A DNA stretch of 64,000 nucleotides from an uncultured Candidatus Saccharibacteria bacterium (GTDB lineage Bacteria > Patescibacteriota > Doudnabacteria > UBA920). Every line of letters begins with the position of its first letter. The first letter of the stretch is position 1. The position numbers were made by a program, and so were the translations under genes. The notes under the pieces were generated by a model that saw nothing but the letters and a program-made list of their open reading frames with translations, was not told where the DNA came from and did no database searches. Of the stretch, positions 12,556 to 45,349 are shown one piece after another. The stretch is taken from positions 18,566 to 82,565 of the forward strand of contig CAZBAS010000002.1 in the NCBI GenBank assembly GCA_964490395.1. Direction: 5' to 3'.

Positions 12556-12611
12556 AAAATCAGCATTAAAATGAATGACCGAGTATTATACTGAGTTTTA
12601 CAGAAAAAAGC

Positions 12612-12745
12612 AAGGGCCCCATGGTAAATCCATGTAAACATATAAGCATATAAGCATTTAAACAAAAGAGGGACCCCACAGAACGTCTAAATTCTGTTTG
12701 TTTACATGTTTAAATGCTTATATGTTTTAATGTTTACAAAAACCA
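12612..12745. repeat. Long AT-rich imperfect inverted repeat (arms about 30 nt: ...GTAAACATATAAGCATATAAGCATTTAAACAAA / TTTGTTTACATGTTTAAATGCTTATATGTTT).
   Basis: Direct read of the sequence; the arms are reverse complements separated by a loop of about 30 nt. It lies between the UXS start and the small basic ORF. Confidence 0.6.
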
Positions 12746-12883: not shown

Positions 12884-13375
12884 TTTGCTAGTCTCCCGAG
12901 GCATAGACTGATTTTGGTCCATGCTCTTTAATTTTCTACTGCGCGTAAAAATGCGCTAGTAGCAACAGATAATTTCTTTCGGTGTTTCTTTCTAGTACAA
13001 GATATTCTTTGGTGTGGCGTGTTGCTCACACCAACCTTCGATATTTTATTTCAATCAAAGGTAGGATTTCTATTTCTATACTTCTACATGTTATAAAGAG
13101 TGGTAAGTTATTTTTGAAAAATATTTTTCAAATTTTTTCTCGCTCTTTATTTTTTGTAGGTGTCAATGTGCTTACATTAAAAATTATCGCGAAAAAAGTT
13201 TATTGTGTCAAGATACTACTGTTGATAACTTTTTTATAAAAAATATTTTCTACTTAATAAAAATATACAAAAATATATTTTGCAAAATATTTTTTCACTC
13301 GCACACAGTATAAAAGTAATTTGTGAGAATAATATGGCAAGATACGATACCATGTAACATATGGCATGTAACGAG

Positions 13376-13404
13376 TAACAAAAAACCGGACGAAGTCCGG
13401 TTTC
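13376..13404 (-). terminator. Rho-independent terminator of the atp operon.
   Basis: AAACCGGAC-GAAG-GTCCGGTTT followed by TTTTTTT on the - strand, 40 nt downstream of the atpC stop. Confidence 0.75.
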
Positions 13405-13450
13405 AACATGTTATATGTTACATGCCACCTGTTACATGCTTTGCACTCCT

Positions 13451-14004: not shown

Positions 14005-15500
<1,496 letters not shown>

Positions 15501-16595
15501 CTACTGCCCTTCCAACGCTATCTTCCCTGCCGTTATTTCACTCAACTCGGTTGTAATCTTATTTTGCCGCAGTTGGTTAAACGTAAGGGTTAAGTCTGCA
15601 ATTAAGTCTCCAGCACTTTCTGTTGCGTTCTTCATCATGATCATGCGGGCACTGTGTTCGGAGGCATCGCTTTCTAGCAGAGTCTGATAGAGCTGGCTTT
15701 CAAGAACTTTCGGAAGCAGGTGGCTGAGTACTTTTTCTGGAGATGGTTCTATGAGGTAGCCTGCTTGGTTCATACCACCCCTCGCCCCTCCTACCTTAGG
15801 AGGGGAACCGGAGGATACATCTGCGATTGAGGAACCACTATCGGCATTTTTTCCTCCCCTAACATAGGGGAGGCTAGGTGGGGTATCATTTTCGAGGCTC
15901 AGCGGCAACAGCTGCACTGTGCGTGCTTGTTGAGATAGTGTAGAAATAAAATGGTTATAGACTATATAAACGGAATTGTATTCCCCAGATATAAATGAGT
16001 CACTTATGAGACGCGCAACGGGAGCTATTTGGTCAATGGACGGGGTACTTTCGGACTTTGCAAAATCTGCCAGTACTCGGCGACGCATGCGTACAGCCAT
16101 GTCCATGGCTTTGCGACCCATAATAACGTACTCAAGGTTATCACGACCGTGCTGTTCCTCGAGTTTTTTAATCTGAACAAACAAGTTCGAGTTAAAACCG
16201 CCAACAAGTCCTTTATTTGTGGATATAACAACGACTAGTGCTTTTGTCGCAGAAGTGTTTGGTTGCATAAGAGCTGCGTAGTTCGTACCCTCTCTAACTC
16301 CCCCTACTCTAGGGGGAGAACCGGAAGAAACATCCGTGACGTAGGAACCACCCTCGGCATTTATTCCCCTCCTAGAATAGGAGGGGTTAAGGGCGGTAGG
16401 ATTCTCTGACGCCGATACCGTACCCCCCAAAGACCGCACCAAACTAAGCGCAAGCTCGCTATACGTGCGGCTGGCAACAGTTGCAGCCTGACTCTTGCGC
16501 ATTTTGGCAGCACTAATCATCTGCATAGCCCGCGTAACCTTGCGCGTGCTCTTGATAGATTTTATTCGGCGTGTGAGTTCTTGCGTACTTGGCAT
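15501..16595 (-). CDS. atpG: F1 ATP synthase gamma subunit carrying two in-frame insertions of about 35-40 aa derived from a palindromic repeat element.
   Basis: The conserved N-terminus (RRIKSIKSTRKVTRAMQMISAAKMRK) and C-terminus (SEHSARMIMMKNATESAGDLI...ELSEITAG) are present. It is 364 aa against about 290 typical. The extra segments ...SYVTDVSSGSPPRVGGVREG... and ...TPPSLPYVRGGKNADSGSSIADVSSGSPPKVGGARGG... are encoded by the repeat copies at 16299..16396 and 15785..15882. Confidence 0.85.
   Translation of the reverse strand: MPSTQELTRRIKSIKSTRKVTRAMQMISAAKMRKSQAATVASRTYSELALSLVRSLGGTVSASENPTALNPSYSRRGINAEGGSYVTDVSSGSPPRVGGVREGTNYAALMQPNTSATKALVVVISTNKGLVGGFNSNLFVQIKKLEEQHGRDNLEYVIMGRKAMDMAVRMRRRVLADFAKSESTPSIDQIAPVARLISDSFISGEYNSVYIVYNHFISTLSQQARTVQLLPLSLENDTPPSLPYVRGGKNADSGSSIADVSSGSPPKVGGARGGMNQAGYLIEPSPEKVLSHLLPKVLESQLYQTLLESDASEHSARMIMMKNATESAGDLIADLTLTFNQLRQNKITTELSEITAGKIALEGQ
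15785..15882. repeat. Hairpin-pair repeat element (RPE-like), copy A, inserted in-frame within atpG.
   Basis: CCCCTCCTA-CCT-TAGGAGGGG ... CCTCCCCTA-ACA-TAGGGGAGG-CTAGGTGGGG. It aligns with copy B at 16299..16396 and with the half copies at 20636..20675 and 36388..36425. Confidence 0.7.
16299..16396. repeat. Hairpin-pair repeat element (RPE-like), copy B, inserted in-frame within atpG.
   Basis: CTCCCCCTA-CTC-TAGGGGGAG ... CCCCTCCTA-GAA-TAGGAGGGG-TTAAGGGCGG. The shared core ...AACCGGA(G/A)GA(T/A)ACATC...GGAACCAC(T/C)(A/C)TCGGCATTT.. confirms homology with copy A. Confidence 0.7.
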
Positions 16596-18179: not shown

Positions 18180-18265
18180 ATGCCTTATTGCAAATTGTAG
18201 ATTTCAAATTGCAAATTGATTTCAGAATTAAATCTGCAATCTACAATTTGCAATCTGCAATTATA
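18180..18265. repeat. AT-rich inverted repeat (CAAATTG/AATCTACAA units) at the atpH/atpA junction.
   Basis: GCAAATTGTAGATTTCAAATTGCAAATTGATTTCAGAATTAAATCTGCAATCTACAATTTGCAATCTGCAATT. Confidence 0.65.
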
Positions 18266-18658
18266 TTACTCACTTAAATCTTTCTTTAATCGTTCGAGGT
18301 TCCCTTTGACGCTGGCGTCTATGAGCGTGTCGTCAACTCTGAGTACCATACCGCCCACAAGTTCGTTGTCCACTCTACTCCGTATTTCCATTTGGGGTCC
18401 AGCTACAGAGTTTAGCTCATCGAGTATGCCTTTATTTGCCGTTGCCTCTTTGGCGAATACTGCCTCGACCTCGGTAACTTCTCCAGCAATGAGTGACAGT
18501 TTTTCGAACTCTGCAACTATAGCTTCGTACTTATCGAGTTCGTTATTATCCTTTAAAACCCCAACCAGATTTTCTATAATCACATCTACATCTTCTGGTT
18601 TAGATTCTTGCAGGGCTAGTTGTAACGCTTGTGCGTATTCTTGTATGGTAGTTGCCAT
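18266..18658 (-). CDS. atpH: ATP synthase delta (OSCP) subunit, N-terminally shortened (130 aa).
   Basis: Sits between atpF and atpA. The C-terminal delta-like region (LVGGMVLRVDDTLIDASVKGNLERLKKDL) is present, but the protein is about 50 aa shorter than typical delta subunits. Confidence 0.65.
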   Translation of the reverse strand: MATTIQEYAQALQLALQESKPEDVDVIIENLVGVLKDNNELDKYEAIVAEFEKLSLIAGEVTEVEAVFAKEATANKGILDELNSVAGPQMEIRSRVDNELVGGMVLRVDDTLIDASVKGNLERLKKDLSE

Positions 18659-18747
18659 AAAACTTTTAAAAAGAATGCCTAATTCCTAATTTCTAATATC
18701 TAATTTCTGAATTCCTAACTTAGAAATTAGGAATTAGAGCTTAGACA
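18659..18747. repeat. AT-rich inverted repeat (CCTAAT/TTCTAAT units) at the atpF/atpH junction.
   Basis: GCCTAATTCCTAATTTCTAATATCTAATTTCTGAATTCCTAACTTAGAAATTAGGAATTAGAGCTTAGACATTAGCGC. Confidence 0.65.
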
Positions 18748-19323: not shown

Positions 19324-19419
19324 AACAGGGAAATTTCTAATTACTAATTCCTAATTTCTAATGCAATACGATTCTGACATTAGAAATTAGATATTAGGCA
19401 TTAGGAATTTTATTCTGTC
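19324..19419. repeat. AT-rich inverted repeat (TTCTAAT units) at the atpE/atpF junction, plus a small hairpin TTATTCTG-TCTTA-CAGAATAA.
   Basis: AATTTCTAATTACTAATTCCTAATTTCTAATG-CAATACGATTCTGA-CATTAGAAATTAGATATTAGGCATTAGGAATT. Confidence 0.65.
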
Positions 19420-19719
<300 letters not shown>

Positions 19720-21120: not shown

Positions 21121-21196
21121 TGGAGCCGAAATCGGGAATCGAACCCGAGACCTACGCGTTACGAGTGCGTCGCTCTACCAACTGAGCTATTTCGGC
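21121..21196 (-). tRNA. tRNA-Thr (anticodon CGU).
   Basis: Manual fold. Acceptor GCCGAAA/TTTCGGC, D-arm GCTC-AGTTGGTA-GAGC, anticodon loop CTCGTAA (U33, CGT, A37), T-arm TCGGG-TTCGATT-CCCGA, encoded CCA. One A:C mismatch at 31:39. Confidence 0.85.
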
Positions 21197-24248: not shown

Positions 24249-24695
24249 ATATTCAAATATACAAATCTACAAATGACTACAAATATTAATCTGGATTATC
24301 CGTAGGCATTTGTAGATTTGTTCTATATGTAGATTTGGACAGTTACTTAATAACTGCTGTTCCCAAGGTCAGCACAAGCATGGCCAGCACCATAACGATG
24401 GCGAGCACACTGAATACTTTTTTAACTGTTTTCTGGTTTCGAATCATACTCAAACTATTATACCATAAACGCCTCTATTCCTAGCGTATGGGCAAGACGT
24501 GCGCCACCCGTCCATCGAAAACGCCACATGAGACATTCCAAAAGAACAAATACATCGCAACGCCCAAAATAGCAAGAAATCCTGAGTTTAGGTCTTGATG
24601 ATTTTAGCTTCGTGCTTATTTGTGATTTGTTATTTGAAATGTGGAACTCATACACCAAACCACAAGCTTTTCGCCTAATATACGAATATAAATTT

Positions 24696-26591
24696 TTATT
24701 TCTTCAAAATTGCTAAGAATGCTTCTTGTGGTATTTCCACTTTCCCAATTTTCTTCATGCGTTTTTTACCTTTTTTCTGTTTCTGTAGGAGCTTCATTTT
24801 ACGGGTAACGTCACCGCCATACAGGTAACCAGTTACGTCTTTACGCAGCGCGGAAATAGTTTCGCGTGCTATAACGCGGCCGCCAATGGCTGCTTGAATG
24901 GCTATTTCAAACTGTTGTCTTGGAATAAGCTCTTTAAGCTTCGTTACCAGCTCCCTACCTTCTACATCTGCCACAGAGCGGTGCATCATGGTGGAAAGCG
25001 CTTCCACTTTTTCATTCGCCACCAAAACATCTACTTTAACCAAATCTCCAGTGCGCAGTTCTAGAAAATCGTAGTTGAGCGAGGCATAGCCACTAGATAC
25101 GCTTTTTAGCTTATCGTAAAAATCTATAATAATGTTGCCGAGGGGCATTTCAAAATGCATATCCACGCGGTCTTCACCCAAATATTGTATGTCACCCGAT
25201 ATGCCACGACGTTTGGTAACAATATCTAATATAGGCCCTATGTAGTCAGATGGAGTAAGAATATTTACTTTCATCCATGGCTCCATAACCTGGGCTATAC
25301 TCGATGGATCGGGAAACTGCGCTGCGGACTGCACGGTAACTTCTTCACCCGAAGTTTTTATAACTTTAAACGCCACACTTGGTGCGGTTAAAATAAGGTC
25401 AAGATCGTACTCGCGGGTAAGACGCTCCTGCACTATATCCATGTGGAGCAGTCCTAAAAAGCCAGTGCGGAAACCAAACCCTATGCTTGGAATATGCTCA
25501 GGCTCAAACTCGAGCGAGGCGTCACTCAAGCGAAGTTTGTCCATGGCATCGCGAAGGTTTGGGTAATCATCACCTGAAACCGGAAAAATGGTCGCATACA
25601 CCATGGGCTTTACATGTTTGTACCCAGGCAATGCTTCGGTCTTAGCACGCTCGCTCAGTAGAGTTATAGTGTCACCCACACGAGCCTTAGAAACATCGCG
25701 GAGACCAGTGACTATATATCCCACCTCACCGCACTGAATGGCATCTGACTTTTCCATCTTTGGGTGGAAGTATCCCACTTCTAAACTTTCCGCTTCGGTT
25801 TTGCTCCCCAGGGTAAATATTTTTTGTCGGGGCAACAGTTTGCCATCAAAAATACGAACAAAACAAATTACACCGCGATGAATGTCGTATGCGGAATCAA
25901 AAATAAGCCCGCGCAGGTCGCCCGTTGGGTTTCCTTGTGGAGCAGGTACTCGCTCTACTATGGCGTCGAGTATGCCCAGAACACCCTCGCCGGTCTTACC
26001 CGATGCATACAAAATTTCATCGTCACTAAACCCAAACGCATCTTGCAGTTCTCGAGCGGTTTTTTCCCTGTCGCTATTTGGTAAGTCTATTTTATTAACA
26101 ACGGGAATAATTTTTAAATTATGTTCCAGCGCAAGATACGCGTTGGCTAATGTCTGCGCTTCTATGCCCTGTGTGCTGTCTACTACTAAAATTGCCCCTT
26201 CGCAGCAGGCAAGACTTCTCGAAACTTCATACGCAAAGTCCACGTGACCCGGAGTGTCTATCAAATTCAGAATATATTCTGAATTTGCAAATTTCAAATT
26301 CGAATCTTTAAATTCTAAAGGCTCTGAGCTGAGTGTTTTATTATTTTGTAAGTGGGATTCGTTTCGGATTTCGGATTTCGGATTTCGGTATTCATAGCTC
26401 ATGCGCGCTGGTTGAAGCTTGATGGTAATACCGCGCTCTCGCTCTAGGTCCATTTGGTCGAGTAGCTGGTCTTTCATTTCGCGCTTGCTCACGGTATGGG
26501 TCAACTCTAAAAGCCGGTCAGCCAATGTAGACTTACCGTGATCTATGTGAGCGATAATGCAAAAGTTGCGAATATTTTCTAAAGAAGACAT
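24696..26591 (-). CDS. lepA: Translation elongation factor 4 (LepA) with an in-frame low-complexity insertion of about 35 aa in the G domain.
   Basis: GHIDHGKST, DTPGHVDF, NKIDL and the conserved C-terminal LepA domain (YGGDVTRKMKLLQKQKKGKKRMK). The extra segment RNPKSEIRNESHLQNNKTLSSEPLEFKDSNLKFANSE lies between GITIK.. and NLIDTPGH and is encoded by the simple-repeat DNA at about 26270-26395. Confidence 0.9.
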   Translation of the reverse strand: MSSLENIRNFCIIAHIDHGKSTLADRLLELTHTVSKREMKDQLLDQMDLERERGITIKLQPARMSYEYRNPKSEIRNESHLQNNKTLSSEPLEFKDSNLKFANSEYILNLIDTPGHVDFAYEVSRSLACCEGAILVVDSTQGIEAQTLANAYLALEHNLKIIPVVNKIDLPNSDREKTARELQDAFGFSDDEILYASGKTGEGVLGILDAIVERVPAPQGNPTGDLRGLIFDSAYDIHRGVICFVRIFDGKLLPRQKIFTLGSKTEAESLEVGYFHPKMEKSDAIQCGEVGYIVTGLRDVSKARVGDTITLLSERAKTEALPGYKHVKPMVYATIFPVSGDDYPNLRDAMDKLRLSDASLEFEPEHIPSIGFGFRTGFLGLLHMDIVQERLTREYDLDLILTAPSVAFKVIKTSGEEVTVQSAAQFPDPSSIAQVMEPWMKVNILTPSDYIGPILDIVTKRRGISGDIQYLGEDRVDMHFEMPLGNIIIDFYDKLKSVSSGYASLNYDFLELRTGDLVKVDVLVANEKVEALSTMMHRSVADVEGRELVTKLKELIPRQQFEIAIQAAIGGRVIARETISALRKDVTGYLYGGDVTRKMKLLQKQKKGKKRMKKIGKVEIPQEAFLAILKK

Positions 26592-26715
26592 GTGGTGGTA
26601 AATATATAAAAAAACGTACGAACATTACGAATTAGATTCGTAGACATTCGTAGATTCGTCTCATTCGTCTTGTCCGACATAGCTCTAGCGACGTCGGAAG
26701 ATTCGGATAGCGCTG
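26592..26715. repeat. AT-rich repeat/inverted-repeat element (ATTCGTA units) at the murJ/lepA junction.
   Basis: ...ACGAACATTACGAATTAGATTCGTAGACATTCGTAGATTCGTCTCATTCGTC... Confidence 0.6.
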
Positions 26716-28371: not shown

Positions 28372-28470
28372 AAATAAATTTCTAATTTTTAATTTTCAAT
28401 TTTTAATTACAATACACTCAAGTAAGCACTGGGCCGATTTTGAAAATTGTAAAATTAAAAATTGAAAATT
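28372..28470. repeat. AT-rich inverted repeat with a stem of about 24 bp at the DUF4012/murJ junction.
   Basis: AATTTTCAATTTTTAATTACAAT ... ATTGTAAAATTAAAAATTGAAAATT; the arms are reverse complements with one indel and the loop is about 32 nt. Confidence 0.65.
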
Positions 28471-35206: not shown

Positions 35207-35338
35207 ATATATTTTTTGACGAATCTACGAATGAACAAATATTGCAAATGGCTACGAATCTGGGACCTAGATAACGTCGCGCATTCGTAGCAATTCGTTA
35301 TCATTCGTTCATCCGCAGATTCGTCAACATTCTCTTTA
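35207..35338. repeat. Nested AT-rich inverted repeat built from ACGAAT/ATTCGT units (GACGAATCTACGAATGAACAAAT ... ATTCGTTCATCCGCAGATTCGTC; inner GCTACGAAT/ATTCGTAGC).
   Basis: Direct read of the sequence; the same unit type occurs at 26592..26715 and 13907..14004. Confidence 0.6.
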
Positions 35339-36376
35339 TTACCCTAAGAAATATACAATTATACCAATTATGGCCAACACGGAGGCAAATATCCAAGCGC
35401 GCATAGTCACTTTTGTTTCAGGCCAGCCCAGCGCTTCAAAGTGATGGTGAATGGGAGCAGAGAGAAATATTTTTTTCTTAAATACTTTTTTGGAAAATAT
35501 TTGGAGCACGGTTGTAACTGCTTCCAAGACAAAGACAAAACCAATTATAGGAAGCAGTGCTATGGAGTTAGTAAGGAATGCGACTATGGCAAGGAGTACC
35601 CCCAGCCCCATGGACCCTGTATCCCCCATAAAAAACCGCGCCGGGTATACATTGAACCACAAAAATGCAAGCAAACTTCCTGCCACCACGCCAATGAGTG
35701 CAGCTAAATTCTCTTGCCCGCGCACATACGCTATAAGCCCAAAGGCAAAAAACGCTATAAGTAGCGTACCACCGGCAAGCCCGTCCAGTCCGTCTGTTTG
35801 GTTTACGGCAAAGCTTGTGGCTATAACAACCAGTATGAAAAATGGGATAAACACCCAGCCAAGGTGTAGCGAACCTGCAAATGGTATGTGTACTGCCTCG
35901 AAACCCAGTTTAAAATAAAACCACCATGCACCTATAGCAGCAACAATGGCGTACAAAATAACTTTGAAGCGAAACGGAAACCCGCGCCCCTGGTGACCCA
36001 TGCGGTTTATATCAAGGAGGTCATCGGCAAGGCCTACCACTGCAGCACCCACAAAGGCGCCCAAAGGGAGCAAAGTTTCGCGACGGGTAAGAATGTTGAG
36101 GTTATGAAAAACATCAAGCCCGACTACTCTATCTAAAAACCAAAACGCAGAAATAATAACGCAGGTAATACCCCACACGAGGAGGCCGCCCATGGTCGGA
36201 GTCCCCTTTTTTGCAGCATGCATTTTGGTAAAGAGCGGAGTTTCTTTGGAATCGCGAATGTTTTTACCCAGCTTATATTTATAGAGGAAATACGTTAGCA
36301 GCGGCGTTGTGCCAAGCGCTAAGATGAACGAAATAGAAGTAAGTGAAAATATCTTTGTCAGTACCAAATCTGTCAT
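35339..36376 (-). CDS. mraY: Phospho-N-acetylmuramoyl-pentapeptide transferase.
   Basis: MraY signature motifs (DDLLDIN..., ...VNQTDGLDGLAGG..., FMGDTGS) and 10 TM helices. Confidence 0.9.
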   Translation of the reverse strand: MTDLVLTKIFSLTSISFILALGTTPLLTYFLYKYKLGKNIRDSKETPLFTKMHAAKKGTPTMGGLLVWGITCVIISAFWFLDRVVGLDVFHNLNILTRRETLLPLGAFVGAAVVGLADDLLDINRMGHQGRGFPFRFKVILYAIVAAIGAWWFYFKLGFEAVHIPFAGSLHLGWVFIPFFILVVIATSFAVNQTDGLDGLAGGTLLIAFFAFGLIAYVRGQENLAALIGVVAGSLLAFLWFNVYPARFFMGDTGSMGLGVLLAIVAFLTNSIALLPIIGFVFVLEAVTTVLQIFSKKVFKKKIFLSAPIHHHFEALGWPETKVTMRAWIFASVLAIIGIIVYFLG

Positions 36377-36387
36377 ATATTCTCTTT

Positions 36388-36425
36388 TTCTCCCCCTCCT
36401 TTCTAGGGAGGGGTTAGGGGAGGTG
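36388..36425. repeat. Half copy of the RPE-like hairpin element in the mraY 5' leader.
   Basis: CCCCTCC-TTTCTAG-GGAGGGG-TTAGGGGAGG matches copy B's CCCCTCCTAGAATAGGAGGGGTTAAGGGCGG. In the mraY orientation it supplies a GGAGGGGG SD-like sequence about 18 nt upstream of the ATG. Confidence 0.55.
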
Positions 36426-36634
36426 AAATGTAGAATTTATAATAAATACGGACCTTCGCAACTGCAATTGAGGAATACCTAAATCAATCTTCTCAGAAAT
36501 AACTGTATTAATTATACCACAAACCTTGAAATTCCCCGCTAAACCTGCTAAAGTAACCAGTCGCAAACAAAACCACCCCCATAAAAACCAACCGCGGCCC
36601 CGCCGCACATCCGCTCCCTAAAAAGGAGCAGCCA

Positions 36635-37321
36635 ATGGAGGCAACACCGATGAAACGACTTTCTACACTAGTAATGCTCGCGCTCGGCTTTTGCTACTTT
36701 TTAATTTGTGGCCAATCCGTCCTGGCGCAGGATGGGATCACCGCAAAATTCGAAACCACGAACGGTAAAGAGCACGCCACATATGCAATTGGAAGTTGTA
36801 TTGTGAGCGCTAGCGGCAACCCGCCAGTATGGTCAATTCAGAACAAACAATCCAGCTCAGTCCAGAAGGACTGCGATGCGTTGTTCGAAAACTTACCCGA
36901 CCATGTCAGCGAACAACTGCGCAACCGTATCCCAAAACAGGTCCCCTTGCCTATTACAGGTGTGCTTGCAGCCGTGTTCCAATACGATGAGTTATCGTTT
37001 CGTTGGCTGCACAACACAGCCGACAAACATCTGCTGGACGCTTTTCTACTAACCTCCACAGACGGACAGGCAAGAAAATCCACCCTGGGCATGGAGCAGC
37101 GGTACAATACCGCCGAAACAGCCCTGAATGCAAACTCGTGGCACCAAGTAAAGATTCTCAAAGTAGAGATCGAGGGTGCGACTGCCACGGTAACAACGAG
37201 CGAAACATTTTATTGGGAATCGAACATACGGGTTCGAGACCACAAAGAAAACCAGCAACAAGTGTATAAGCTGGTTTTCAAGAACGGATTCTGGCTCGTT
37301 GATTACAACGCGCCAGTCTAA
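36635..37321 (+). CDS. Secreted hypothetical protein.
   Basis: AAGGAG SD 7 nt upstream of the ATG; signal peptide (MKRLSTLVMLALGFCYFLICGQSVLAQ); no family recognised. Hairpin plus T-run at about 37330-37400. Confidence 0.55.
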   Translation: MEATPMKRLSTLVMLALGFCYFLICGQSVLAQDGITAKFETTNGKEHATYAIGSCIVSASGNPPVWSIQNKQSSSVQKDCDALFENLPDHVSEQLRNRIPKQVPLPITGVLAAVFQYDELSFRWLHNTADKHLLDAFLLTSTDGQARKSTLGMEQRYNTAETALNANSWHQVKILKVEIEGATATVTTSETFYWESNIRVRDHKENQQQVYKLVFKNGFWLVDYNAPV

Positions 37322-38229: not shown

Positions 38230-38271
38230 AAATTACGGTTTCACTCACAAATGTGAGTGAAACCGTAATTT
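38230..38271. promoter_or_regulatory. 42-nt perfect palindrome abutting the stop codon of the PaaX-like gene.
   Basis: AAATTACGGTTTCACTCACA-AA-TGTGAGTGAAACCGTAATTT; paired with the near-identical palindrome at 38966..39001. Confidence 0.7.
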
Positions 38272-38965: not shown

Positions 38966-39001
38966 TTACGATTCCACTCACATTTGTGAGTGGAATCGTA
39001 A
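38966..39001. promoter_or_regulatory. 36-nt perfect palindrome 32 nt upstream of the PaaX-like start codon.
   Basis: TTACGATTCCACTCACA-TT-TGTGAGTGGAATCGTAA. It differs from 38230..38271 only by compensatory changes in both arms (G>A, T>C). Confidence 0.7.
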
Positions 39002-39578: not shown

Positions 39579-39616
39579 ATGTTCGCAATTTAAGCGGCCG
39601 CTTAAATTGCGAACAT
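39579..39616. promoter_or_regulatory. 38-nt perfect palindrome in the pilin promoter region.
   Basis: ATGTTCGCAATTTAAGC-GGCCGC-TTAAATTGCGAACAT, 31 nt upstream of the pilin ATG. It has the same GCGGCCGC centre as the palindrome at 45308..45349. Confidence 0.7.
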
Positions 39617-44731: not shown

Positions 44732-44771
44732 AAATACAACGTTTTTCGTGGCCACGAAAAACGTTGTATTT
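44732..44771. promoter_or_regulatory. 40-nt perfect palindrome overlapping the stop codon of the PaaX-like paralog 2.
   Basis: AAATACAACGTTTTTCGTGG|CCACGAAAAACGTTGTATTT. Confidence 0.7.
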
Positions 44772-45307: not shown

Positions 45308-45349
45308 AAAATACCACGTTTTCTGCGGCCGCAGAAAACGTGGTATTTT
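45308..45349. promoter_or_regulatory. 42-nt perfect palindrome 14 nt upstream of the PaaX-like paralog 2 start codon.
   Basis: AAAATACCACGTTTTCTGCGG|CCGCAGAAAACGTGGTATTTT. It is related to 44732..44771 by compensatory substitutions in both arms. Confidence 0.7.

Follow-up and report, generated by a model that had tools for sequence, protein, structure and literature searches.

Inverted short tandem repeats at an insertion hotspot in the G domain of LepA (elongation factor 4) in Patescibacteria

The gene for the translation factor LepA (elongation factor 4, EF4) of a tiny, groundwater-type, uncultured member of the Patescibacteria raises the question of how a block of simple-sequence DNA comes to be translated within a highly conserved bacterial protein. 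The gene is located on contig CAZBAS010000002.1 of assembly GCA_964490395.1, of which positions 18,566 to 82,565 were analyzed; this whole 64-kb stretch is called the window, and block shuffles of it provided the chance expectations given below. A preliminary description of the window had assigned the extra residues of LepA to intergenic repeat elements invading the gene in a single strain or lineage. The insertion is indeed real and translated, but we found that hairpin-forming short tandem repeats are inserted across the clade at one hotspot, the turn between strands beta2 and beta3 in the G domain of LepA, and that some of them run into the native codons of the gene.

The identity of the host gene was established from its open reading frame (ORF). 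The protein exceeds the equivalog cut-off of family TIGR01393 (880.8 bits vs. 533.9), with the match split into two stretches at the insert, and contains the Pfam domains GTP_EFTU, GTP_EFTU_D2, EFG_C and the LepA-specific C-terminal domain LepA_C (PF06421, 157.2 bits). It matches T. thermophilus EF4 (5imq_B) with 685 bits, and the GTPase motifs G1 (AHIDHGKS), G3 (DTPGH) and G4 (NKID) are intact on both sides of the insert, in columns that are invariant in an alignment with 39 relatives (A1). The best 120 LepA matches share 72–89% identity with the window protein over the full length, and the closest carry the names Candidatus Doudnabacteria or Patescibacteria; the source organism is a Doudnabacteria-like Patescibacteria bacterium. 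The gene and the parts of its insert are as follows, in window positions:

24696..26591, minus strand: lepA (elongation factor 4), 631 aa, host of the insert (ORF, TIGR01393, Pfam, 5imq_B)
26277..26393, minus strand: variable segment, codons 67-105 (EYRNPKSEIRNESHLQNNKTLSSEPLEFKDSNLKFANSE), between both conserved Tyr of the beta2-beta3 hairpin (alignment A1)
26361..26388, minus strand: arm 1, (CCGAAAT)x3 then CCGAAAC, a perfect period-7 tandem array coding for RNPKSEIRNE (Tandem Repeats Finder, TRF; pattern search)
26307..26360, minus strand: spacer between the arms, about 54 nt (sequence; DNA alignments A2, A4)
26288..26306, minus strand: arm 2, a degenerate period-7 block GATTCGA ATTTGAA ATTTG (TRF, RNA fold)
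26262..26287, minus strand: perfect 26-nt palindrome, CAAATTCAGAATA followed directly by TATTCTGAATTTG (palindrome scan with shuffles)

The distance from GITIK to DTPGH is 53 residues in the window protein compared to a clade baseline of 20; the excess that had been put at about 35 residues is therefore genuine but amounts to 33. The variable segment as a whole comprises 39 residues vs. 6 in insert-free relatives (A1) and has a GC content of 33%. Read on the minus strand, TAT GAA TA is followed by (CCGAAAT)x3 CCGAAAC, the spacer, GATTCGAATTTGAAATTTG and the palindrome. TRF placed arm 1 at 26362-26388 with period 7, 3.9 copies and 100% matches, the array closing with the variant unit CCGAAAC, and arm 2 at 26282-26300 with period 7 and 2.5 copies. 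Arm 2 retains AUUU facing the AAAU of arm 1 and has lost CGG, and its GATTC-GAATTTGAA looks like a direct copy of the native TATTCTGAATTTGAT; in the window insert, arm 1 is freshly homogenised and arm 2 decayed. The spacer differs in length and sequence among relatives and is missing in one of them, locus L004 (A2, A4). The left half of the palindrome codes for the final insert residues (A)NSE(Y), and its right half is made up of conserved codons of the native gene, those for (Y)ILNL. The window has just two perfect palindromes with arms of 10 nt or more that are confined to coding sequence, this one included; block shuffles give about 0.1 per window.

ORF, TRF and split profile match together confirm an in-frame, simple-sequence, period-7 insertion in the G domain. 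The series of heptamers with a near-palindromic tail that had been reported is also present, with CCGAAAT in 3.9 copies, but the spacer of about 54 nt intervenes before the following period-7 block and the tail is a perfect palindrome. The RNA fold of the window insert is dominated by this junction palindrome, and a stable hairpin formed by its two arms was ruled out by their weak pairing. Rfam returned no RNA family at gathering score in the whole window except four tRNAs, and only sub-threshold chance matches near the insert.

In the alignment with T. thermophilus EF4 (5imq_B), residues 70-103 of the query stand in for two residues, which lie at the beta2-beta3 hairpin tip. In the Ras-like G domain topology, the beta2-beta3 turn lies at the sheet end away from the nucleotide pocket. 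An AlphaFold2 model calculated on alignment A1 has a mean predicted local distance difference test (pLDDT) score of 66.5, with strands at 62-68 and 104-111 flanking the insert and scores below 50 for residues 76-100. According to this model, the insert is predicted to replace the turn by a disordered loop. Residues N, E, S and K are abundant in the inserts. The variable segment of the window contains no stop codons in the lepA frame and two and three in the others (probability of a stop-free segment 0.06 in shuffles); the other two frames contain stops in seven of eight loci, with a chance of 0.05–0.13 of a stop-free frame for such AT-rich inserts. The open lepA frame together with stops in the other frames fits translation and a reading-frame filter. 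The insert therefore lies in frame and free of stops at a structurally tolerant place of a conserved gene, and its peptide loop is probably neutral and tolerated by the GTPase.

To see how widespread insertions at this site are, we determined the length of the GITIK-DTPGH segment in the best 120 LepA matches. It comprises 20 residues in 65 proteins and another length of 16–22 in eight, while 45 proteins have 24–53 residues and two have 163 or 167; 47 of the 120 closest LepA proteins therefore carry inserts at exactly the same site, which are unrelated in sequence. Scans of genome and metagenome contigs gave, among the matches listed, one close locus each (L006 and L090) and a remainder of 158 loci with 48–58% identity; those 141 in which the segment was readable served as a distant control. 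Among these LepA proteins of other phyla, 138 of the 141 have 16–23 residues (21 residues in 119), and just three have an insert (44–69 residues). The latter show the Patescibacteria-type motif YILNLI or YVLNLI, and two of them originate from groundwater samples. The contrast of 47/120 close with 3/141 distant proteins argues for a clade-wide hotspot, which is neither a strain-specific oddity, as had been supposed, nor an old part of the domain whose protein sequence distant LepA retain.

The DNA of relatives was read at eleven loci with short inserts (two of which, L088 and L090, share one insert), two loci with an inserted GxxExxY domain (see below) and three with little or no insert. Every short insert read consists of an inverted array pair, in most cases with period 7, whose unit is specific to the lineage:

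L001: upstream arm (NCCNAAT)x4, downstream arm (AATTGGA)x4
L173: upstream arm (NCCAATN)x4, downstream arm (AAATTGG)x4.3
L002: upstream arm AAATCCGAA, downstream arm TTCGGATTT
L004: upstream arm (TCGAAAT)x4, downstream arm a weak partner
L005: upstream arm TTAATCCTT, downstream arm AAGGATTAA
L006: upstream arm (AGGTTNN)x4, downstream arm (AACCCTC)x3.5
L088 and L090: upstream arm (AAGATTG)x4.9, downstream arm (AAATCTT)x5.1
L089: upstream arm (CAAATAT)x4.6, downstream arm (AATTTTT)x3.9

The arrays of the relatives are imperfect (75–91% matches), and RNA fold z-scores were negative in all eight loci tested, ranging from -1.4 in the window to -4.3 in L001. The well-paired arms of L001 and L173 are homologous to those of the window, and alignment brings the inserts of the window, L001, L173, L002 and L004 into register, with arm remnants and the junction palindrome in common (A2, A4). 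The window insert is therefore positionally homologous to those of four relatives, which likewise speaks against its being confined to one strain or lineage.

For comparing the turnover of inserts with that of their host protein, core identity was calculated over 544 residues with the insert masked. The window core is 99.6% identical to that of P0128 with inserts just 31% identical, 98.0% identical to that of P0133, which has no insert, and 97.4% identical to that of P0131, which has another one; in 10 of 27 pairs with a core identity of at least 98%, the inserts are less than 40% identical. Hypermutation at the site was considered for these values and dropped, because the DNA identity between the window and L173, which codes for P0128 and contains the closest relative's lepA, is only 89% for lepA and 72% for the flanking genes, and the two hence belong to different species. 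Because LepA is very constrained and the species differ, high core identity with unrelated inserts is no proof of hypermutation; the turnover agrees with approximately neutral evolution combined with indels, and the insert changes in the manner of repeat DNA that is free of constraint and frequently subject to indels. An assembly or amplification artefact was ruled out by identical or nearly identical inserts recurring across independent samples and sources (P0001 with P0134; P0003 with P0137 and P0138; L088 with L090; L173 with L174 and L175).

Some gene calls at the site are incomplete. Those of P0122 and P0124, in the cluster of P0001, start at a Met within the insert, and P0144 and P0148, in the cluster of P0051, represent a LepA split into pieces of 82 and 333 aa on one 86-kb contig. 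At the hotspot, these cases may represent alleles with a frameshift or an interruption. A phase-variation switch, in which one 7-nt unit gained or lost would shift the frame and turn LepA off, would agree with the perfect tandem repeat (CCGAAAT)x3.9 in the ORF, with its unit length not divisible by three, and with the possibly frameshifted Joint Genome Institute proteins P0122 and P0124 of cluster 1. However, the array has just 3.9 copies, those of the relatives are imperfect, no frameshifted allele was demonstrated, and turning a housekeeping factor on and off lacks a biological rationale; we regard such a switch as extremely unlikely.

The origin of the inserts is indicated by the borders between array and native gene. 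The downstream TRF arrays of L088 (6248-6283) and L089 (6282-6310) run over the native Y-I-L(-N-L) codons, and therefore the native sequence represents the last array unit and the upstream array its complement. The junction palindrome recurs with arms of 13+13 nt in the window, L001 and L173, 12+12 in L004, 14+14 with a 2-nt loop in L005 and 11/12 in L002. Its left arm tracks the synonymous codons of the right arm: TTG is matched by CAAA in the window and CTT by AAGA in L001 and L173, TTG..CT pairs with AG..CAA in L004, and CTG or TTG pairs with CAG or CAA. The right-arm Leu codons tracked in this way in the window, L001, L173, L004, L005 and L002 are TTG, CTT, CTC or TTA, plus CTG or TTG. The left arm alters amino acids while staying complementary. 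It is thus an exact inverted copy of the adjacent sequence, with lineage differences compensated on both arms, as is the mark of template switching. An imperfect precursor is present in the insert-free locus L172, where the codons K-D-S-E-F-I-L-N-L at this position form a quasi-palindrome with 9/11 complementary bases; none was found at the lepA site of L170 and L171.

From these features, we infer a slippage and template-switch mechanism at lepA. The native codons of the turn and strand beta3 (K-D-S-E-Y/F-I-L-N-L) would pre-form a quasi-palindrome, which intra-strand template switching at replication would perfect and extend, yielding inverted copies of the flank. Slipped-strand mispairing would then multiply and homogenise short units, giving each lineage a unit of its own, and only variants with a length of a multiple of three and free of stops would persist, because LepA is needed. 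The product would be a disordered, N/E/S/K-rich surface loop tolerated by the GTPase. We hold such frame-filtered growth in situ with somewhat better than even confidence. Template switching is known to make and maintain hairpins and to homogenise the arms of inverted repeats, coding sequence included (PMC8794818, PMC7202029, PMC8604942). As in those cases, imperfect inverted repeats would be perfected or extended by copying arm from arm, with multi-base compensatory changes also in coding sequence; however, the changes described there are limited to minor corrections and short extensions of the arms, whereas the lepA insertions comprise 60–120 nt, combine inverted with tandem period-7 amplification and recur at one site throughout a clade, the mechanism itself being deduced from sequence (PMC7202029, PMC8794818, PMC8604942).

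Several observations weigh against this reading. Simple slippage gives no reason for so strong a bias towards period 7. RNA folding leaves the two arms of the window insert weakly paired (z = -1.4 to -1.5), and because of this poor pairing the hairpin interpretation leans largely on the relatives. Since only intact ORFs were sampled, the rule that inserts are in frame and free of stops partly reflects ascertainment. The unit NNCTAAT/ATTAGNN is common to three spacers of the atp operon, and some arrays could have spread as copies. In the orthologous spacer between DUF4012 and murJ, both period-7 hairpin arms of the window (28372-28470) are about 93% identical to those of L173 (8107-8204), although the hairpin loop is unrelated between the two and the flanking genes are 72% identical; this suggests, from the sequence comparison, that these arms may be under selection, possibly with a 5'-untranslated region or promoter function. 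Inverted arrays may accordingly have a function, and the one in lepA might too. Finally, the nuclease-like GxxExxY domain found between inverted arrays at the lepA site hints at an element-driven process.

How far the insert resembles the intergenic repeats was assessed from all period-7 arrays of at least three copies and at least 80% match. The window contains 12 of them vs. 0.5 in block shuffles, and 11 of the 12 lie in the non-coding 16% of the window, the lepA array being the only coding one. Period-8 arrays number five vs. 0.1 expected, and those of periods 9–12 are almost absent. The array units differ by locus (NNCTAAT, ATTGCAR, AATTTTN, ATGTAAC, ACGAATN and CCGAAAT). The intergenic spacers, especially those of the ATP synthase operon, are nearly filled by hairpins with arms of 3–5 copies of a 7-nt, sometimes 8-nt, unit:

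15406-15500, 18180-18265, 18659-18747, 19324-19420 and 19659-19719: hairpin-filled spacers
28372-28470, 12556-12740, 13340-13440, 24255-24325 and 26592-26700: further hairpin-filled spacers

The statement that the lepA insert is the same kind of repeat as in the spacers consequently applies to its period and inverted-array architecture, but not to its unit, which it has in common with no spacer of the window. No second copy of the CCGAAAT array was found in the 64-kb window; the other match, at 21126 in a tRNA gene, has two mismatches. Because the lepA insert shares the architecture of the spacers without a shared unit, one repeat-forming process is more economical than invasion, and the view that intergenic elements invaded lepA is not supported, as the arrays also derive partly from the gene's own flanking codons.

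The corresponding explanation would be a mobile copy of a MITE-like (miniature inverted-repeat transposable element) intergenic repeat that landed in lepA, by chance in frame, comparable to the Rickettsia palindromic elements (RPE). It would account for the architecture in common with the spacers and is compatible with the three NNCTAAT spacers as copies of one element; atpG of the same genome contains an in-frame palindromic element of a dispersed kind, and in-frame palindromic elements are known in Rickettsia (PMC10969869). However, the unit lacks a further copy in 64 kb and differs per lineage at one identical site, the arrays pass into native codons, and the palindrome mirrors synonymous codons that are particular to each lineage. 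The lepA site is also the sole period-7 array of at least three copies in the 6–11 kb read of five relatives (L001, L002, L004, L006 and L088), whereas L089 and L173 have further ones. A convincing target-site duplication was not seen, the GAATA at both ends being the native Glu-Tyr codon pair; inverted arms are present, with coding sequence of the native gene at the right end. Arrays merging with native codons, a palindrome tracking these codons and a unit without another copy do not fit the import of a ready-made element, which we judge to be distinctly unlikely.

The comparison with Rickettsia is instructive in both directions. RPE (Ogata et al. 2000, 2002) are dispersed families of about 150 bp with conserved sequence and peptide at many loci (PMC10969869), and they resemble the lepA insert as palindromic, non-coding-looking DNA translated in frame in conserved housekeeping genes where the fold tolerates a surface segment. 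Several recognisable copies at different loci, which define RPE or MITE, were not observed for the lepA insert within the 64-kb window; it has no second copy there, a new sequence per lineage, a fixed site and period-7 units, and it includes native codons. A better analogue of RPE is found in atpG (15501-16595, minus strand), the gene for the gamma subunit of ATP synthase. This gene contains two in-frame copies, 72% identical, of a 133-nt element (15761-15893 and 16274-16406) with a GC-rich palindromic core CCCCTCCT..AGGAGGGG; the protein has 364 aa vs. a profile of 285 positions, and both insert peptides share DVSSGSPP[RK]VGG. The atpG element is dispersed and RPE-like and differs in class from the lepA insert. 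The two had been taken for examples of the same phenomenon, which was ruled out by this finding.

Heptamer repeats are known from cyanobacteria as short tandemly repeated repetitive sequences (STRR) and from Beggiatoaceae with the unit TAACTGA (PMC4679880), and an excess of heptameric simple sequence repeats is general in bacteria (PMC4692102). The arrays of the window agree with them as few-copy 7-nt arrays strongly enriched in intergenic DNA (12 vs. 0.5 expected). STRR and the Beggiatoaceae repeats consist of a few conserved genome-wide units in mostly direct arrays, whereas the units of the window vary by locus, form inverted hairpin pairs and include one in a conserved gene.

A further coding array was noticed in L089, where (AAATCAC)x4.6 with 96% matches (L089:27-58) lies in frame in a MurD-like ligase gene and codes for EEITNHKSQIKN; an inverted partner of this array is not obvious.

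Selection on the structure would offer another explanation, either on an RNA or DNA hairpin acting in mRNA stability, processing or ribosome pausing, or on a diversifying surface loop. The architecture is kept across many lineages while the sequence changes, the junction palindrome shows compensatory changes, and one intergenic hairpin, that between DUF4012 and murJ, has arms conserved far above its flanks; in addition, orthologous atp and mur spacers of relatives hold hairpins of other sequences. Yet template switching would lead one to expect compensatory change just as much, and more than half of the close relatives have no insert. The arms of the window insert are decayed (z = -1.4), the site has no Rfam family, and the composition of the peptide follows the AT-rich repeat DNA with no conserved motif. 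We therefore consider selection on the lepA structure fairly unlikely. Beside these spacers, the hairpins between murJ and lepA were found to be unrelated in sequence between the window and L173.

The longest inserts at the site are of a different nature. In P0009 (L086:6160-6660), P0112 (L087:10160-10670) and P0149, a GxxExxY domain of 145–160 residues is inserted in frame at the identical lepA position, as identified by TIGR04256 (120.9 bits vs. a cut-off of 35) and a match to PF13366 (PDDEXK_3). In L086 and L087, the domain lies between inverted tandem arrays with a period of about 10–11 and a CGGAC/GTCCG core, and it lacks a start codon of its own. Because the core of P0149 is 98.5% identical to that of an insert-free LepA, the GxxExxY domain also comes and goes. 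The short hairpin inserts could on these grounds be ORF-less derivatives, footprints or landing pads of a GxxExxY (PD-(D/E)XK-like) selfish element homing to lepA, which would explain the identical site in three proteins, the flanking inverted arrays and the near-identity of P0149 to an insert-free protein. However, the arms around the domain differ in period and sequence from those of all short inserts read, nor does the domain as fused have a start codon. A gene for a GxxExxY protein was considered as a possible driver, and tblastn found none in the window. The literature on the GxxExxY family is almost nil, with no nuclease activity or target known from it. A descent of the short inserts from such an element appears to us of markedly low probability.

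A broader version of this idea would regard the inverted arrays as the cis part of an undescribed Patescibacteria system that builds or recognises hairpins with fixed-length repeats and targets the lepA site beside the G3-motif codons, the GxxExxY domain being its autonomous form. We think this quite unlikely; if true, the period-7 preference and the strongly conserved arms of one intergenic hairpin would reflect protein recognition. Hairpin-bounded, ORF-carrying intervening sequences of rRNA exist, and such a system would resemble them inside a protein-coding gene.

Growth in situ from native codons, which we prefer, would mean that a new disordered peptide can arise in a highly conserved bacterial protein straight from copying errors driven by DNA structure. 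Two other systems come close to this situation. Borg proteins also gain disordered polar segments from fast-evolving local nucleotide repeats (PMC9879509), but their genic repeats are direct with a unit divisible by three, whereas the lepA arrays are inverted with a 7-nt unit, which results in a peptide period of 21 nt (7 aa). Mitochondrial genes of Nematomorpha likewise contain long perfect inverted repeats in translated genes (PMC6649704); both arms code for conserved protein there, whereas in lepA only the last 13 nt are conserved and the remainder is a dispensable loop.

The site provides natural replicates in the form of dozens of unrelated inserts in otherwise 90–99% identical proteins, and because so many replicates occur at a single site, the LepA turn of Patescibacteria is suited to studying the birth of hairpins and microsatellites, arm homogenisation and the reading-frame filter. 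The insert could also serve as a fine-scale strain marker. Annotators should be aware that low-complexity stretches in housekeeping proteins of Patescibacteria (candidate phyla radiation) can be translated repeat DNA. An explanation of the 7-nt repeat length and of the GxxExxY domain at the same site could raise the importance of these findings.

Two further observations concern the surroundings of lepA. Compared to L173, the genes murJ, DUF4012, ftsW and murD of the window are about 72% identical and lepA (L173:10001-11890) 89%, and a further gene, towards the opposite end of the locus, also reaches 89% (L173:119-1446 vs. window 35335-36662); genes with this degree of identity may be under unusually strong constraint or may have been exchanged recently. 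In addition, the window contains perfect intergenic palindromes of 36–42 nt with arms of 17–21 nt at 38230-38271, 38966-39001, 39579-39616, 44732-44771 and 45308-45349, some of which form related pairs (AAATTACGGTTTCACTCACA with TTACGATTCCACTCACA, AAATACAACGTTTTTCGTGG with AAAATACCACGTTTTCTGCGG) and which may be terminators or protein-binding sites.

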